Assembly (NCBI GenBank): GCA_016840405.1 | Contig: JAEOSK010000042.1 | Location: forward strand, 1-20,116 | Reading direction: 5' to 3' | DNA length: 20,116 bases | Source of the DNA: Candidatus Hermodarchaeum yapensis | GTDB lineage: Archaea; Asgardarchaeota; Hermodarchaeia; Hermodarchaeales; Hermodarchaeaceae | Program-made: the position numbers and the translations under genes | The notes under the pieces: generated by a model | What the model was told of the DNA's origin: nothing | The model's input: only the letters and a program-made list of their open reading frames with translations | Databases searched by the model: none | In this document: piece by piece, positions 2,789 to 16,921 of the stretch | Layout: each line of letters begins with the position of its first letter | How positions within the stretch are numbered: position 1 is the stretch's first letter

Positions 2789-2924
2789 TTCGTATCGACC
2801 TATAATGTATAGAAGGTAAGGAAAAGGCTTGTCATTGTCTTTGGAAAACTAACAACTCAGGTTGATTTGAGTTAGATAAACCATCAGAGAATCCAGATAA
2901 GTCAATAACCATTATATTCTGCCT

Positions 2925-3290
2925 AAAAGTGTCACAATACGGTGCAAAAGTGTCAGAATAGCACTAATCCTCACGTTTCAAACTTCAAAGAGGTGCTAAT
3001 CAGGTGCCGCTTTCCCTAAGCATTTCGATTAGCACTTCGGTTGTCAGAACAATTTCGCAACGGTTCCAGTGGACAACCCTTAGAGAAGGTGGGCTTAAAA
3101 TATTCTCTGTCTCCTCAGTTTCCATCAATAGAAGAGGCGCCAATAGGGTGCTAATCGCCTTCTGGCAATAGTTAGATATCGGATATATCCCTTAACTACA
3201 TTATCGGTTAACGTATCGGTTGCCAGAACACAAATCGCCTCAACAACGGTTGACAATTCATGAGGGAGTTGATAGCAACAACTGGCAACT
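2925..3290. repeat. Non-coding cluster of short direct and inverted motifs, including ORB-like elements
   Basis: AAAAGTGTCA(C/G)AATA at 2925-2939 and 2946-2960; GTGCTAATC at 2993 and 3148 with an inverse at 3027; CGGTTG(T/C)CAGAACA at 3038 and 3217; GTTCCAGTGGACAAC at 3063; palindrome GGATATATCC at 3181-3190. Confidence 0.55.
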
Positions 3291-3362
3291 CATCAGAGTA
3301 TGCTTCAATTTCCTTATTAAAAACTTCAATTAGCCCTTTATCAATTACCAGTTTATGAGTAG

Positions 3363-3878
3363 TTTATCCAAATTCCTAGCTCCCCTAATCTTAAAATCGT
3401 CGAGATTAAATCAACCTCTAACAGGTTCAAATGCTACTAATTCAAGACGATCCGTAACCTCACGTGGGAATATCGGAACCAGATCTATCCCTACATGGAC
3501 AAGGGCTTCCACAAATTCAACAAAAACTCCCTCAAGGAAGACGTTCTCACTTAACATCATACCGTTTTCAAAAATGAAATGAATCAGGACCGAAAACAGT
3601 ACCCGGGACCCTCGGACGGCTACCTTCACTTTCAAAGATGTAACCAAACAACTTTGATTTAGCAGCTAAGGTTTGCCCAAAGGGAAGTGGTTCAAATCGG
3701 CATTAATCAAGTGGTCTGAGCAGAAGTCCATCTACACATCTACGGCAAACCGGAGGAGATTTCAATCGCTTATACAATCATCTAGGTGGCAGGTATCTCA
3801 AAAAATGGATTTATATTTCTGGATGGGCGAGAGATAATTGGAATTCTTAAAGAAGGTTCCATCATTAGGAGGGGTTAA
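3363..3878 (+). pseudogene. Possible decayed gene relic with PD-(D/E)XK/RecB-like motifs
   Basis: One frame reads LKIVEIKSTS...*FKTIRNLTWEYRNQIYPYMDKG...GFIFLDGREIIGILKEG with several internal stops. The ExK and QxxxY-like motifs were spotted by eye only. Confidence 0.25.
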
Positions 3879-3880
3879 AA

Positions 3881-4225
3881 ATTACTCAACCGGAATCTCA
3901 GCAAGACACCAGAAGAAAGAAGTCCTATAAGCGCATAGTTGCCTATTATGCGGTCAATTTGATTGCGCTTTTCGTCCTGATCGTCTTCCTCATCCTAGGG
4001 GGGCAGCTAAATTTGGTGACATGGATGGTTACCTTAAGTCCATCAGCCTCTTTCCCCTTCTCCTGGCTGATAATAATAATCATTGTGAACGTAATCATTG
4101 TAACCGTTCTTATTTGGTTAGGTGTCCCTATGAGGAGTCTTTTCCTGTGCGGAACGACGCGCTCCCACTATAACCCCTTCCGGAGAAGAGCGAAAAAACC
4201 GCGAGATGACGAAGAAGCCAATTGA
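3881..4225 (+). CDS. Small two-TM membrane protein, paralogue of 12767-13138; probable non-canonical ATT start
   Basis: Frame is open from 3869, upstream of the track's TTG at 3959. Shares KKSY, GGxL, TWM and YNPFRR with the 123-aa protein. GGAGG (3868-3872) lies 8 nt before ATT 3881. Confidence 0.7.
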   Translation: MTQPESQQDTRRKKSYKRIVAYYAVNLIALFVLIVFLILGGQLNLVTWMVTLSPSASFPFSWLIIIIIVNVIIVTVLIWLGVPMRSLFLCGTTRSHYNPFRRRAKKPRDDEEAN

Positions 4226-4487
4226 TCGTGGACCCGACGTTGTATCTAGGCAAAAGGTTCGGTGGAGAAAAGCCGAAAGAAGGGGGGACTCCCAAACCAT
4301 CCTTGTGGGGCTGATTCGGGAGATATTTGTGGTGTTTGGGCAAAGCTCAAAGTCTCTAATCGTGATACCCTTTCCAGCAGACCCACAACCTGCCTAAGAA
4401 ACCCCAGAATCAAAGCCACCAGTCATCTTATCGTCACCGAATACCTTATGACCAACGAAATTACTCAATAAGCAAAGAGGGGAAGTT

Positions 4488-4619
4488 ATGAGTAAACTCC
4501 CAAAGGGCGTAAAGAAGGCTTTAGAGAAATATGGAAAGTATCTACAGAAGATAGATCTTGCCGAAGAACTGGCAATCAAAGAATTACCACAATTTAAAAA
4601 TATAATTTTTTTTTCTTGA
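4488..4619 (+). CDS. Small or truncated helical ORF (43 aa)
   Basis: GAGGGG precedes the ATG; MSKLPKGVKKALEKYGKYLQKIDLAEELAIKELPQFKNIIFFS; ends across the T9 run where the opposite-strand pseudogene breaks off. Confidence 0.35.
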   Translation: MSKLPKGVKKALEKYGKYLQKIDLAEELAIKELPQFKNIIFFS

Positions 4620-4955
4620 TATGGATGCCCGTCCGGGAATAAATAGGCTTTTTCTCGAAAGATGTAAGAAAACCCGAAAAGTCAAACAAGAAAGAAAAAC
4701 AGGAGTGGAAAGGCAATAAGTGCAAACTCAATCAAGACCAACAATCCTCCAATTGGGTTTGCTGTGAACCAGAGACCAATCACCGATACAATGGCGTTGA
4801 AAATAAGTGTAAAAATGAAAGTCTTCGTCATATATTTGATCAAATACCTACCTAACCCAAAAATTGCCATACGGTATTCCTAGTGCTGCATATGTGCTGA
4901 GCGGTGGGATGTGTTAGATTGTCGGTTCCTGATATTCTTCGATTTACTCCACCAT
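4612..4955 (-). pseudogene. Degraded paralogue of the central part of the 407-aa membrane protein (5038-6261)
   Basis: IPPLSTYAALGIPYGNFWVR aligns to IEPFSTYKHLSVPFANFWVR. Frameshift near 4850. FFFLV*LFGFSYIFREKAYLFPDGHPYQEK aligns to FIFILWLLLNSYIFREKAHLFPEGHPYQDK. Two further TAA upstream. Confidence 0.85.
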
Positions 4956-5037
4956 CCAAGGTTCTTTGGGACTCCCTGTCTCGACCGCCACAACTACAGC
5001 TTTGATTATATCTATAAGTTTTCCACTCTGAGCTTGT

Positions 5038-6261
5038 TTAGACTGGGATGCCGAATAATGTCGCGAGATAAAGGATTAATGGACCGAAGATGAAGAATAG
5101 AAACCAGATCATTAGCATGGCTCCAATTCCGAACCACAAAATCATCAGAACACGATAGCGAAAAAGACTGATGAAGTGCACTCGGAAATACACATCACTA
5201 AATTCACTATCAAAACGGAGACCAAGTCGATAGATGCGGAGTAATCCACCATCTTCAAGATCGATAGGGGACGGGATATAGATATGGTTCATAAACTCGG
5301 ATGTCCCATAGAAGTTAAGGGGATACGTTAGAATCAGTCCCATTCGTTTGCCTTTCCAGGAACGGGGAACTTGATGGCTAATTTCAAGGTCCCTGCAGGT
5401 TTGGTGCTTGGCTGGACCCCGTTGACAGGTCATGGAGCCTGGTCTTACGTTCCAGAGCACCTTGTCTTGATAGGGGTGGCCCTCTGGGAAGAGGTGTGCC
5501 TTTTCTCGAAATATGTACGAATTCAATAGTAGCCATAAGATGAAGATGAAGAAGAGGGGTACCATGAGGAGGAAGGCCAAAATCAAATACAATAAGCTGC
5601 GAGTCATATTGACAGGGTTTACAAACTGAATGGCTGAAAAAACGAAAGTTAGTATTAGCCCTATAACAAGGTACTTAGAAAATGCTTTGGTTAAATATCC
5701 AAGTCTAACCCAGAAATTTGCGAATGGGACGCTGAGATGTTTGTATGTGCTGAAAGGTTCAATGTCCTCGCTTTTTGCTTTAGCCTTTTTTGGACGGGTA
5801 TAATCCAGGATGGATTCCAAATCACTTAGGACGATTCTGGGTTGGTCGATTGGTGGAAGCTTTCTCTGATAACGCACGCGAACATTCGAGTCAAGGTAGG
5901 CACCAATAAGTAGTATTGCTGAACCAAGGACCACCATGACAAGCATGAAGAAAAGACCGATGTAAAGAGATAAAATCAATCCAGATATTACCAAAATTGT
6001 CCCTACGAGCATAATAGTAATACCCAAGTAGTCTTGGAGTGTTTGTCTATACTCGTCCCGCGATCTCCCCCCTCGAAATTGCCGGGGTTTATACGTGGTA
6101 AGCATCGATCCAATGAATATCAATACCAGACTAGGAATTAATGTTGCAATTGTCAATAAAAGAATCCTTAAATAAATAAACATCAATGCAAATAAATCCA
6201 AAATTACCCCAATGACGATAAGGATAAAACCCAATGGCTTCCAGCGGGTTCTTCGATTCAT
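5038..6261 (-). CDS. Hypothetical multi-pass membrane protein (about 7-8 hydrophobic segments)
   Basis: 407-aa ORF with GGTGA before the ATG; the adjacent paralogous relic supports it as a real gene family. Confidence 0.85.
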   Translation of the reverse strand: MNRRTRWKPLGFILIVIGVILDLFALMFIYLRILLLTIATLIPSLVLIFIGSMLTTYKPRQFRGGRSRDEYRQTLQDYLGITIMLVGTILVISGLILSLYIGLFFMLVMVVLGSAILLIGAYLDSNVRVRYQRKLPPIDQPRIVLSDLESILDYTRPKKAKAKSEDIEPFSTYKHLSVPFANFWVRLGYLTKAFSKYLVIGLILTFVFSAIQFVNPVNMTRSLLYLILAFLLMVPLFFIFILWLLLNSYIFREKAHLFPEGHPYQDKVLWNVRPGSMTCQRGPAKHQTCRDLEISHQVPRSWKGKRMGLILTYPLNFYGTSEFMNHIYIPSPIDLEDGGLLRIYRLGLRFDSEFSDVYFRVHFISLFRYRVLMILWFGIGAMLMIWFLFFIFGPLILYLATLFGIPV

Positions 6262-6592: not shown

Positions 6593-9500
6593 ATGAATCG
6601 CCTTAATTTTACTAAATGGTGTGGAATTACCCTCACTCTTTTACTTTCTTTCTCAATTGTATTTCCCCAACTAATTCCACCGTCGTTTTCTCTGTCGACA
6701 ACGGCTAGCACTAAAACAGGTCCAATAAGATCTTTAGTTACGGATTCGGTTGTTCCTCAAACGGCTAGCCCTCAATATTTGATTATCACACCCAATAGCA
6801 CCTGGGTCGATTCGTTCGCCTTATGGAAGGACTTGAAAGGTGTGCCTACACAGGTAGCAAATATCTCGTCAATCCAAACACAGTATCCTCTCAGTCCGTC
6901 AATCCGTGATACTGCTGAACAAATCTGGAATTATATTCATGGCGTGTATACGAGTGTATCACCCGCCACGCTCCAGTGGGTTCTACTTATCGGAGATAAT
7001 GTGACGCTCCCCTCACGTTATGTGTATCTTCCTGACACATCGGAGTGGACAAATCTCAGTCCCACCCTTAAACCCACGGACTTCTACTATGGTGTGATGG
7101 ACGACTCCAACTGGGATGATGACAACGATGGGCGCTGGGGTGAATGCAACACCTTCAATGTGGGTGGGCCTACTACTGATGAAATTGGGGACTGGATCCC
7201 TGATGTCTTTGTAGGCCGGATTCCCTTCAATGACCAAACAATCGTGACCAACATACTCAACAAAACAATTACCTACTCTCGCAATCCGACGAGTTATTCC
7301 ACTACTGGCTGGGACACTTTCCTGTTAGCTGGCGCATTAAGCAACTATGATGAAGAAGTCTCCGGCTGGTATGATGGCGACTATACGGACGAAGCAGAAC
7401 TAAGCGACTATATCAACGACAATATCATTCCAAATTATTACAGTAAGTTCCGCTTCTATGAAGACCGCTTTTTTGTTTGGAACTACTCAACTTCTAATTC
7501 CTTTGAAAAATTGAACAACACCGCAGTCTTTCAAGGATTAAACGCTTACTCGCCAGCTCTCGTTAACTTGGCGAGTCATGGTAGTCCAACCGATATGCAA
7601 CGTAAATACGACTCCAGTGGCTTACCTTATGCAACTTACTTCAACCGTGCTTCTCCTGGTTGGAACGTCAACGTTACTGGAATCGCTATCGGTGATCCTG
7701 ATAACGATAACTTCAACGAAATCGTGTATACACATAATGCTGGTACGCCAGCTAGTGCTCAAAACGGGACCATCTGGATGGCGGACGGACTCGATTTCAA
7801 TACTAACGTCCTTGTATGGGATCTTTGGCTTAATCCTCCACCCGGTAATCCCTCCTCTTATGCCACCTGTGTTGATATCGGCGATGTCTGGAATAACAAT
7901 ACCATCTCGGTAGTTGTTGGAACAAGTGCTGGATCAGTGATCATCTTCACTAATTATGCTGCTAGTCTGTGGAGTGCTAGAACCATAAGTGGACCAGAAC
8001 CAACAGATCCTGTTCTCTGTATCGAAGTTGGGAACGCTGATAATGCGGCCATCCCCAATGGTGGACCCGGTATCAATACTGACATAGCTTGGGGTCATCA
8101 GAGTGGCTTTGTAGGAATTGCGACTTGCTTTGGGGGAGCTGTCCCAGCGATTAATGTGGTTATTCCAATTGACAATTTTGGGCAGGCTGTCTATTCCATA
8201 GACGTTGGTGACCCTGACGATGATATGGCCGGGGAAATCACGTGTGGAACAGGATATGCTGGTCCTGATGGGGATGTATACCTCCTCACCTACAATCCAA
8301 TCGCTGGTCCACCATGGACGCGTCAAACTATCGATACCAATGTTGGTGGCATTGTGTATGGACTCGACACTGGTGATGCTGGAAATGATAATTACAACAA
8401 AGTCGTCATCGGCGTTGGAGACGGTGCCATTTACATGTATGAAGCTGGCTGTTTGGCACTCGGCTGGGCTGGCTTTAATGGTGGTACTGATGCAGGAACC
8501 AAACAAACTATCTCGAATTCAGGCAGCAACGCTGGGTCAGTTCGATGCCTTAAAGTAGGATATGTGGACGACAACGATATTTCAGCAACCGCTCAGGTTG
8601 AACATATCAGTATTATTGCTGGAAACCAGTATTCTGGAATTCGGAAGTATCATGCAAACAATGTTTCTGGGTTCGTCGATTGGGTAACGATTGCACGGGA
8701 TAATCTCATGTTTCTTGGACCTATAGTTTCTGATTTGGATGTTGGCGAACTTAGTTACACAACAGGTGAAGTTACAGCGGATGAGGAAATTGCTGCAGGG
8801 TACAATGTACTATTTGGCTTTCCCATTCCTGGGTTCAATTGGTTTGAGTGGCCCTATGCGGACTGGGCTAACATGCTCTATATGGGTCAGGCAGGGAATG
8901 CCACATCAACCATTCCCCATCTGGTCTATGCTGATTCCTGTCTCACAGGAGCCTATGATTATCCAGGAGATTCATTATCTGATAGATTCCTCTATAACAT
9001 GGCAATTGGTTACGTAGGATCAATACGAATTTGCTGGTACTATCGGGGTACAATGGCAAACTCCTTTGCATGGGGACTAAGTCGCTGGATGTCGCAAGAC
9101 TACTGGCAAACCTTCTTCGGAGGCAACACCAACTTCCGATCAGGTGATACTCTCTACGTCAGCAAAATCAACTATATCACCGCTTTTCAATCAACACACA
9201 CGCAAGCAACCTGGGAGACCTATCACCGTAAGAATCTCCTCAGTTATGCCCTCTTCGGTGATCCTGAAGTCGATGTCTATACCAACAATCCTAGAACACT
9301 CACGGTCACATATCCCTCAAATGCCCTCTATACTGGTGACACTGTCTTCAGAGTGATGGATGGGTCAACACCAGTTGCAGGAGCAACAGTGTGTCTATGG
9401 GATACTGATGGGTCCTACTACGAAGTTCGATCAACGAATAGTACAGGCCACGCGATTCTCCATGTAGCTGCACCAGTTCCAAACACAGTCAATGTCACAG

Positions 9501-10036
9501 TGACCGCTCATAATTACGTTCCGTTTGAAAGTACTGTTGGTGTTGAACATTGGATTGATGTTTCTCAGCCAACAGTGTCTTACACGGCGGTAACTGCTTC
9601 CATTGATATTACTGGTGTGACTGCTACCTGTAGTAACCCTACTCATGGCACTCTGGATGACATCGAAGCCACTACTCATACCTATGCAATCTACGATAAC
9701 TCAACGGGTTACGCAACAGGGATAGATGGAGATTTGACCTGGACAGGCAGCGAATGGCAAGTAACGGGTCTTAACGTTTCAACGCTCTCTATCGGTTCCT
9801 ACTATGTGCAATGCATATTCGCAGATGCTGATGTAACCGACACTCTTGGGCCACCATCAGATGTTTTCACAATTAGTCCACCGACAACACCCACACCCCC
9901 GCCATTCGATATTATCCAATGGTTGATGCAAAACTGGGTCTATATTGCTATGGTGCTAGTTATTGTCATTTTGATAGCTATCATCATAATGATAATTCGA
10001 CCTAAGAAACCCAAATCCGAATCTGCCACATCATAA
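6593..10036 (+). CDS. Secreted, C-terminally anchored peptidase C25 (gingipain-like, clan CD) with an inserted FG-GAP-like repeat domain and Ig-like domains
   Basis: Signal peptide; C25 motifs YLIITP, WVLLIGD, TDFYY, VFVGRIP, SHG (His329), DSC (Cys783), AIGYVGS, LFGDP; Ig-like PVAGATVCL...TNSTG...VTVTAHNYVP; Pro/Thr linker, TM helix, RPKKPK tail. Confidence 0.9.
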   Translation: MNRLNFTKWCGITLTLLLSFSIVFPQLIPPSFSLSTTASTKTGPIRSLVTDSVVPQTASPQYLIITPNSTWVDSFALWKDLKGVPTQVANISSIQTQYPLSPSIRDTAEQIWNYIHGVYTSVSPATLQWVLLIGDNVTLPSRYVYLPDTSEWTNLSPTLKPTDFYYGVMDDSNWDDDNDGRWGECNTFNVGGPTTDEIGDWIPDVFVGRIPFNDQTIVTNILNKTITYSRNPTSYSTTGWDTFLLAGALSNYDEEVSGWYDGDYTDEAELSDYINDNIIPNYYSKFRFYEDRFFVWNYSTSNSFEKLNNTAVFQGLNAYSPALVNLASHGSPTDMQRKYDSSGLPYATYFNRASPGWNVNVTGIAIGDPDNDNFNEIVYTHNAGTPASAQNGTIWMADGLDFNTNVLVWDLWLNPPPGNPSSYATCVDIGDVWNNNTISVVVGTSAGSVIIFTNYAASLWSARTISGPEPTDPVLCIEVGNADNAAIPNGGPGINTDIAWGHQSGFVGIATCFGGAVPAINVVIPIDNFGQAVYSIDVGDPDDDMAGEITCGTGYAGPDGDVYLLTYNPIAGPPWTRQTIDTNVGGIVYGLDTGDAGNDNYNKVVIGVGDGAIYMYEAGCLALGWAGFNGGTDAGTKQTISNSGSNAGSVRCLKVGYVDDNDISATAQVEHISIIAGNQYSGIRKYHANNVSGFVDWVTIARDNLMFLGPIVSDLDVGELSYTTGEVTADEEIAAGYNVLFGFPIPGFNWFEWPYADWANMLYMGQAGNATSTIPHLVYADSCLTGAYDYPGDSLSDRFLYNMAIGYVGSIRICWYYRGTMANSFAWGLSRWMSQDYWQTFFGGNTNFRSGDTLYVSKINYITAFQSTHTQATWETYHRKNLLSYALFGDPEVDVYTNNPRTLTVTYPSNALYTGDTVFRVMDGSTPVAGATVCLWDTDGSYYEVRSTNSTGHAILHVAAPVPNTVNVTVTAHNYVPFESTVGVEHWIDVSQPTVSYTAVTASIDITGVTATCSNPTHGTLDDIEATTHTYAIYDNSTGYATGIDGDLTWTGSEWQVTGLNVSTLSIGSYYVQCIFADADVTDTLGPPSDVFTISPPTTPTPPPFDIIQWLMQNWVYIAMVLVIVILIAIIIMIIRPKKPKSESATS

Positions 10037-10090: not shown

Positions 10091-10936
10091 TTACTCCAGT
10101 AATCCGACTTCTTGTCGATACGTCTTATATTCGCGGATACTCTCGAGAGAAATTCGGCTAACAACGACTGCTGCAGTATTTGTGGGTGCAATCTTCAGTG
10201 CTTGAGAGGATGGGCCCTCGTTATTTCGAAATCGATATGATGGATCTGCAATACAGGATCCACCGCAAGTAAATACGCCAGGGGCATACTCGCGTGAAGC
10301 TTGGTCCGCGCTTACAATGGGGATTGTGTATTCTTTCGCTCGAACGGCGATAAGGGATTGCCACGCCCATTGTCCATACTGAATCTGTTCCGAATCAAGA
10401 ACTGTCGTCATAGTGGGGATTGCCAGAAAATCAACTTTGGATGCAACTTGAGACACAAGGTCATGAAACCAGAGATCAGAGCAAATTAAAATCGCTACCC
10501 GAAAATCCCGAATTTTGAAGGTAGGTGTTTGAGTCCCTGCTTCTAATCCTAAGTGTTTCTCTGCACGAAAAGGGTGCCGTTTATCATAACTTCCCAGAAT
10601 TTTTCCACGAGATGAGAACAAGTAGGATCGATTGCGCCATTTGTGCTTTTCCGTTTGAGATGGAATCGTTCCTGCTATCATCGGAATTTTGTACTCTTGG
10701 GTTAGGTGGCTGATGGAAGCATGAATTCGTTTCGTAAGTTGATCACTTTCATGTTTCGTAGCCGCCCATTCGCGAAAGGTTCCGAATGCATATTCAGGTA
10801 AGACAACGCAATCGGGCGTTTCATTTTGTGATTGAATTTGATTGAGGCTCTCCTTAATTTGAAGAAATGTGTCAGTGGGATTAGGCGCCGGTTCAATCTG
10901 CAGTGCCGCTAATGTCACGGAATTTTCTTTGCTCAC
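10091..10936 (-). CDS. Carbon-nitrogen hydrolase (nitrilase superfamily, Nit/omega-amidase-like)
   Basis: Catalytic E-K-C triad motifs VLPEY, YDKRHPF, ILICSDLWF. Confidence 0.9.
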   Translation of the reverse strand: MSKENSVTLAALQIEPAPNPTDTFLQIKESLNQIQSQNETPDCVVLPEYAFGTFREWAATKHESDQLTKRIHASISHLTQEYKIPMIAGTIPSQTEKHKWRNRSYLFSSRGKILGSYDKRHPFRAEKHLGLEAGTQTPTFKIRDFRVAILICSDLWFHDLVSQVASKVDFLAIPTMTTVLDSEQIQYGQWAWQSLIAVRAKEYTIPIVSADQASREYAPGVFTCGGSCIADPSYRFRNNEGPSSQALKIAPTNTAAVVVSRISLESIREYKTYRQEVGLLE

Positions 10937-16776: not shown

Positions 16777-16921
16777 GGGGTCATGGCCTAACTAGGTATG
16801 GCAACAGGCTCCAGAAGAAACCACCAGACAGACGGACTGACCGGACATCCGGGATGACGATGTTCTGGAGCGACCTGGTGAAACCTGTAGATTCTGGGTT
16901 CAAATCCCAGTGACCCCACCA
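16777..16921 (+). tRNA. trnW: tRNA-Trp(CCA) with a 68-nt intron at 37/38 (16815-16882) and encoded CCA
   Basis: Acceptor GGGGTCA/TGACCCC; anticodon stem ACAGG/CCTGT with CCA at 16811-16813; T arm CTGGG-TTCAAAT-CCCAG; relaxed BHB (CTCC/GGTG); 3' ACCA. Confidence 0.95.
16815..16882 (+). ncRNA. tRNA-Trp intron carrying partial box C/D guide elements
   Basis: D' CTGA at 16837, C'-like ATGACGA at 16854, guide TCTGGAGC complementary to GCTCCAGA across the anticodon loop. Confidence 0.6.

Follow-up and report, generated by a model that had tools for sequence, protein, structure and literature searches.

A 20,116-nucleotide stretch of DNA from Candidatus Hermodarchaeum yapensis (contig JAEOSK010000042.1, positions 1 to 20,116 of the forward strand; hereafter “the window”) carries a gene for a 1147-residue protein that is predicted to be a catalytically competent cysteine endopeptidase of the gingipain family (MEROPS C25, clan CD), with a seven-bladed beta-propeller nested between its catalytic histidine and its catalytic cysteine. 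In clan CD, which includes the caspases, legumains and gingipains, these two residues are carried by adjacent strands joined through a short connection. A preliminary description of this DNA, made from the sequence alone, had assigned the dyad to His329 (nt 7577) and Cys783 (nt 8939), 454 residues apart, and had listed seven repeat motifs between them; translation confirmed the former, and a script found the motifs to begin at residues 364, 427, 477, 536, 591, 653 and 715, as described. The spacing of about 30-35 residues that it quoted for gingipains agrees with the 33 residues that separate His211 from Cys244 in RgpB. On balance, it is probable that the window protein is a C25 endopeptidase of the cell surface in which the propeller acts as an exosite or wall near the active-site cleft.

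Evidence for membership of family C25 came from profile searches. The Pfam model Peptidase_C25 (PF01364) scores 107.4 bits on the protein (cut-off 23). It aligns over two separate stretches, of which the earlier (residues 62-336) covers profile positions 1-245 of 374 and stops right past the His-Gly pair. The second stretch is visible only with the whole protein or with profiles; residues 740-930 searched alone gave no Pfam match. A single-sequence search of solved structures also gave no match, and profiles were required. A profile built from 29 homologues matches gingipain R and sets the strand ending in Cys783 on the RgpB strand ending in Cys244. When a profile of a 96-sequence alignment (A3) was compared with solved structures, RgpB was matched with an expect value (E) of 2.2e-41, Kgp with 7.7e-25 and PorU with 2.2e-18. 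In this alignment His329-Gly330 falls on RgpB His211-Gly212, Cys783 falls on Cys244, and the insert appears as one gap. No other Cys/His pair aligned with the gingipain dyad: the Cys783 column is invariant in all 96 relatives, and the His-Gly columns are kept in 93, the three exceptions being relatives that lack the insert and carry Gln. The idea that the protein is a non-catalytic scaffold, or pseudo-protease, draws on such Gln substitutions, whereas His329, Gly330 and Cys783 vary little or not at all in the insert-bearing family, which makes this explanation exceedingly improbable. Gingipains proper have an S1 pocket specific for Arg or Lys, with a buried Asp. Asp266, kept in 86 of the 96 sequences, is a possible candidate for the S1 acidic residue near the position of RgpB Asp163; it lies two positions off the residue aligned with Asp163, beside an alignment gap, and its placement is uncertain. 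As a separate observation, the insert-less C25 relatives P0077, P0095, P0115, P0102, P0111 and P0172 (P-numbers denote homologues, the window protein being P0001) retain the Cys but have Gln where the catalytic His would be; they may represent C25 variants that are inactive or have an altered mechanism.

Structure prediction suggests that the two halves of the catalytic domain come together across the insert. The first full-length fold, computed from an alignment of 29 close homologues, gave good propeller and immunoglobulin-like (Ig-like) domains and an unusable catalytic domain, with a predicted local distance difference test score (pLDDT) below 50. A second fold, of residues 45-905 with A3, reached a mean pLDDT of 89.4 and a predicted template modelling score (pTM) of 0.83. 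Exhaustive structural comparison of this second model placed RgpB first (4ief_B; Z 41.9, root-mean-square deviation (rmsd) 2.2 Å over 328 aligned residues, about 18% sequence identity), with an aligned range of model residues 16-859 that includes both C25 halves; Kgp came second (Z 38.1) and also spans both. In the model, two halves that are distant in sequence rebuild one ordinary gingipain domain. Since both superpose on RgpB as one rigid body, His329 and Cys783 would be placed as in RgpB, an indirect placement taken from the superposition. The proposal that these two residues form the gingipain dyad across the insert thus holds at the level of the model.

The insert itself is modelled as 28 strands in seven four-stranded blades, with pLDDT mostly 80-95. 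Strand 348-353 completes blade 7, and the ring is therefore closed, with adjacent chain ends. Model residues 301-711 (protein residues 345-755) match solved seven-bladed propellers at Z 30-34, with ITFG2 at Z 31.8 (VIA-align); a Foldseek search returned ITFG2, BBS1/2/7 and integrin alpha chains, and a shape search of the ESM Atlas matched FG-GAP propellers at template modelling (TM) scores of 0.82-0.84. Together these results bear out the earlier claim of a complete, closed seven-bladed propeller. The large clusters in the ESM Atlas search were either C25-only or FG-GAP-only, with no twin of the whole architecture among them. In both models, each of the seven motifs corresponds to the innermost strand and the next loop of one blade. 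Strands 334-339 and 757-763, which flank the insert, may form a short two-stranded connector, to judge from the strand list, and the junctions are modelled with good pLDDT, with no hinge-like or low-confidence linker seen.

Several observations indicate that the propeller is a true insertion into a C25 domain. It begins about 13 residues past His329 and ends about 25 residues ahead of Cys783. Within A3, the spacing between His and Cys is 34-60 residues (median 46) in 69 relatives that lack the insert and 413-464 in the 27 proteins that bear it; a second count, over 158 C25 domains without a split, gave a range of 28-59 and a median of 39. A distance of a few tens of residues is typical of the family but does not define it. 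A profile search of the whole library returned 6312 relatives. Among the best 150 of these and the matches of the first search, the insert positions are covered only by P0001-P0029, P0034, P0035 and P0037, and the rest match the C25 halves back to back; splits at the insertion site occur only in proteins of two insert-bearing subgroups. The junction residues P345, Y346, W750, E752, W753 and W758 are nearly invariant. The insert is kept in at least 27 homologues from independent assemblies and, because each motif is in addition a blade element in both models, the repeats are not a chance pattern. An assembly chimera was ruled out by the identical architecture found in many independent assemblies.

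The homologues are labelled Promethearchaeota, Hodarchaeota, Thorarchaeota and Hermodarchaeota/Hermodarchaeia, and the 90% cluster of the window protein includes Hermodarchaeia records. A divergent branch, the P0037 cluster, has about 25% identity in the insert and is labelled Heimdallarchaeota and Gerdarchaeota. Public records name these proteins merely “C25 family cysteine peptidase.” Of 301 genomes sampled from the phylum, the insert occurs, always in single copy, in 13 of 18 that belong to the family of the window (two genera) and in none of 282 others; the window's own genome, which is 86% complete, has one clear C25 gene. In a tree computed from the columns of the catalytic domain, all insert-bearing proteins and the insert-less P0036 form one clade with a support of 100, which favours a single origin. 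P0036 (1068 aa, locus L009:6001-9207) is the nearest archaeal C25 protein without the insert, with 53% identity over the catalytic domain. It shares the Ig-like tail, the membrane anchor and the clade of the window protein, but has a 7-residue linker at the propeller site and an unrelated N-terminal extension of 300 residues without a Pfam match. P0036 is nested within the insert-bearing clade (Shimodaira-Hasegawa-like approximate likelihood ratio test, 99), a placement under which the propeller would have been lost secondarily and cleanly. By an approximately unbiased (AU) test, a topology that unites all insert-bearing proteins and leaves P0036 outside remains acceptable (p 0.26), so that the trees hint at such a loss without establishing it. 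Relocation of the propeller to the N-terminus of P0036 was ruled out by hhalign, which showed no similarity between the extension and the insert.

Kinship of the insert with FG-GAP and integrin-alpha propellers is supported at the profile level. A profile of the insert alignment (A2) matches ITFG2 (E 1.5e-5), integrin alpha-V (E 7.5e-4) and BBS7 (E 0.048). This part of the FG-GAP/integrin-alpha identity proposed in the preliminary description therefore stands, whereas the window protein gives no match to a Pfam FG-GAP model; only Beta-prop_BBS7 (E 0.0016) and Itfg2 (E 0.085) are matched, both below cut-off. For the divergent members P0034 and P0037, the FG-GAP_3 scores of 21.2 and 18.6 bits fall short of the cut-off of 26.9, and the A1 family profile also matches the repeats of P0148, which bears 16 FG-GAP_3 repeats. 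FG-GAP propellers have Ca2+-binding loops (D-x-D-x-D-G-x-x-D/E) between strands 1 and 2. The GDxDxD-type calcium loops that had been described survive in part: the canonical integrin-type motif was found in blades 1 and 4 only, and of 27 other close homologues in A2, 25 have it at the position corresponding to blade 1 and 17 at that of blade 4. The insert therefore resembles the FG-GAP propellers of integrin alpha chains, of ITFG2 in the KICSTOR complex and of BBS1/2/7 in its seven four-stranded blades and in its profile and fold matches, and differs from them in being nested within an enzyme domain and in having five loops without canonical Ca2+ ligands. Conservation within the insert is highest in strand A (0.86) and strand B (0.83), intermediate in the A-B loops (0.69), and lowest in the other loops (0.45-0.52). 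According to the strand topology of the model, the propeller begins and ends on its A-B/C-D face; with the chain ends on this side, the conserved A-B face probably points toward the catalytic domain.

The remainder of the protein (Table 1) has the predicted layout of a surface-displayed, membrane-anchored enzyme, in which a leader (residues 11-25 form a hydrophobic stretch, as read by eye) is followed by the globular domains, a Pro/Thr-rich linker, a transmembrane helix and a basic tail. The N-terminal part of the C25 domain stops just past the catalytic His. The catalytic domain begins straight behind the leader, and Propeptide_C25 (Pfam PF08126), which is present in relatives such as P0042, gave no match in the window protein even at E up to 10. 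The all-beta Ig-like domain (pLDDT 74-88) aligns with the RgpB Ig-like domain at 324-421 and has weak matches to Pfam Peptidase_C25_C (E 0.0044) and CarboxypepD_reg (E 0.0014). The second beta-sandwich module occurs in 4-5 copies in P0034 and other matches. Counted by profile positions (about 981-1096), this module is found in 2-7 tandem copies in P0034, P0035, P0038, P0039 and similar proteins, some bearers of tandem copies having no C25 domain. The protein has 17 N-glycosylation sequons, compared with 13.8 ± 3.3 in shuffled sequences, which is no significant enrichment.

These features suggest a model in which the protease is exported and held outside the cell by its C-terminal membrane anchor. 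A propeller nested in a peptidase has a parallel in prolyl oligopeptidase and dipeptidyl peptidase IV (MEROPS S9), where a seven- or eight-bladed propeller within the catalytic polypeptide lies next to the active site and limits substrate access. By analogy with the prolyl oligopeptidases, the propeller of the window protein would select or restrict what reaches the cleft, forming a rigid, Ca2+-stabilised wall or exosite beside it on the side of the catalytic His. A rigid wall or exosite is suggested by the position of the insertion, on the loop that leads away from the catalytic His, by near-invariant aromatics at the junctions, and by the high pTM (0.83) of the whole model. The enzyme may aid the digestion of external protein, as is assumed for the C25 peptidases of sediment archaea, which have been listed as extracellular, and as expressed (PMC6461988; bioRxiv 10.1101/2025.03.11.642519).

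Four points weigh against this explanation. Strand topology is the one guide to the orientation of the propeller relative to the cleft. The A-B loops could be conserved only for holding the propeller together. The canonical Ca2+ motif is confined to two of the seven blades, the other five loops being degenerate. Lastly, P0036 has all C25 motifs with its short linker, from which it follows that the propeller is dispensable for the fold and perhaps for catalysis.

The completeness of the P0036 catalytic domain without a propeller is also consistent with a different role, in which the propeller is an adhesin or lectin-like arm whose free face attaches the enzyme, or the whole cell, to polymers, particles or partner cells. 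Such an arm would bring the protease close to its substrates and leave the active site unshaped. Integrins and numerous bacterial surface proteins use FG-GAP propellers for binding, the insert shares profile and fold kinship with these propellers, and the window protein is built like a single-pass surface receptor. However, the face that binds ligand in integrins (the D-A and B-C loops) is variable here, and with values of 0.50-0.52 it is the least conserved part of the insert. Moreover, an adhesin would not need to sit within the catalytic domain and could be attached to the N- or C-terminus, as happens in other C25 proteins, and the joints of this insert look rigid and conserved. An adhesin arm therefore seems a possible but rather unlikely explanation.

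A second alternative is that the propeller replaces the propeptide as a latency device, blocking the cleft until Ca2+ or a ligand moves it. The lack of a Propeptide_C25 domain, which many relatives possess, would be explained in this way, and the insert both adjoins the catalytic His and contains Ca2+-type loops. Nevertheless, the confident model arranges the gingipain domain in the usual way and does not suggest that the dyad is displaced, and no hinge-like linker is seen in it. Many archaeal relatives without the insert also have no propeptide match. Taken together, these data make a latency device distinctly improbable.

It has also been considered that the protein is a processing peptidase or sortase resembling PorU, which would trim or attach surface proteins recognised by the propeller and would have no nutritional role. 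PorU (PDB 6za2), the type IX secretion sortase, is likewise a cell-surface enzyme of family C25 and is matched by the A3 profile; the window protein is predicted to be membrane-anchored at the cell surface; and NCBIfam NF033707, the model for the type IX secretion system (T9SS) sortase, gives a weak match (E 0.0024). The PorU match is far weaker than those to the gingipains, and RgpB is much the better match; the sortase model reaches 15.5 bits where 420 are required. PorU belongs to a type IX secretion context, whereas the window gene has no such context and is neighboured by unrelated metabolic genes. Archaea are not known to possess type IX secretion. A PorU-like function is accordingly very unlikely.

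The preferred reading, a surface endopeptidase with a propeller beside its cleft, can be set against the gingipains RgpB and Kgp of Porphyromonas gingivalis (PDB 1cvr, 4ief, 4rbm). The window protein shares their catalytic fold (rmsd 2.2-2.5 Å) and, with RgpB, the positions of the His-Gly and Cys of the dyad and an Ig-like domain behind the catalytic domain. It differs in placing a 415-residue propeller in a connection that has 33 residues from His to Cys in RgpB. Gingipains carry an N-terminal inhibitory propeptide, for which there is no match here, and are anchored through a type IX secretion tail or haemagglutinin domains, whereas the window protein has a C-terminal transmembrane helix and an archaeal host. 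The closest functional analogy, which implies no homology, is with the S9 propeller enzymes; these are serine peptidases of the alpha/beta-hydrolase fold with another propeller family, whereas the window protein is a predicted caspase-fold cysteine peptidase. In the literature searched, neither a C25 enzyme nor another member of clan CD was described as having a propeller between its catalytic residues, in agreement with the earlier statement that this architecture is undescribed for C25. A 415-residue domain in the His-Cys connection, kept across an archaeal lineage, indicates that this loop can host a large module with the fold intact. It would also provide a natural case of a propeller beside a cysteine-protease cleft, parallel to the serine prolyl oligopeptidases. 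The family defines a lineage-specific, predicted cell-surface protease of Asgard archaea, which could serve as a lineage marker and as a target for the study of how sediment archaea capture and digest external protein. Bolder possibilities are that this is the first clan CD (caspase-fold) peptidase with a gate like that of prolyl oligopeptidase, or an integrin-like adhesion receptor fused to a protease, by which Asgard archaea would hold and process particles or the surfaces of partner cells; we consider such an outcome unlikely.

Table 1. Positions in the window of the C25 peptidase gene and of the parts of its product
Feature	Residues	Nucleotides	Strand	Basis
Whole gene, C25 cysteine peptidase with nested propeller (predicted)	1-1147	6593..10036 (stop codon included)	+	Single open frame; Pfam PF01364
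N-terminal signal peptide or hydrophobic leader (predicted)	1 to ~35	6593..6697	+	Sequence reading; model helix 5-26
C25 catalytic domain, N-terminal part	60-342	6770..7618	+	Pfam C25, RgpB alignment, pLDDT >90 in the second model
Catalytic His (predicted), followed by Gly330	329	7577..7579	+	Aligned on RgpB His211-Gly212
Inserted seven-bladed FG-GAP-like beta-propeller (modelled)	343-757	7619..8863	+	Alignment, model, profile matches
Blade 1 integrin-type Ca2+-loop motif	D368-E376	7694..7720	+	Motif D-x-[DN]-x-[DN]-x-x-x-[DE]
Blade 4 integrin-type Ca2+-loop motif	D540-E548	8210..8236	+	Motif D-x-[DN]-x-[DN]-x-x-x-[DE]
C25 catalytic domain, C-terminal part, bearing the catalytic Cys	758-903	8864..9301	+	Aligned on RgpB 224-372; superposition
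Catalytic Cys (predicted)	783	8939..8941	+	Aligned on RgpB Cys244
Ig-like beta-sandwich behind the catalytic domain	904-985	9302..9547	+	Weak Pfam matches, RgpB alignment, all-beta model
Second beta-sandwich domain	986-1097	9548..9883	+	All-beta model, pLDDT 84-90
C-terminal transmembrane helix (predicted) and short basic tail, preceded by a Pro/Thr-rich linker	1107-1135 (helix)	9911..10033	+	Sequence reading; model helix

Directly upstream of the protease gene, and divergent from it, lies an open reading frame (ORF) of 407 aa (5038-6261, minus strand) with no Pfam match. Convergently downstream is a carbon-nitrogen hydrolase gene (10091-10936, minus strand), whose position is kept in five related genomes (loci L003-L007) with 68-75% identity. 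Positions 2849-5037, about 2.2 kb, contain no ORF of at least 100 aa on either strand and have no Rfam match; the longest stop-to-stop frame there is 3869-4225 (plus strand), of 118 aa. ARAGORN reported no transfer RNA (tRNA) in the window. Rfam gives a tRNA match of 53 bits at 16777-16918 (plus strand), and its length of 142 nt implies an intron of about 70 nt.

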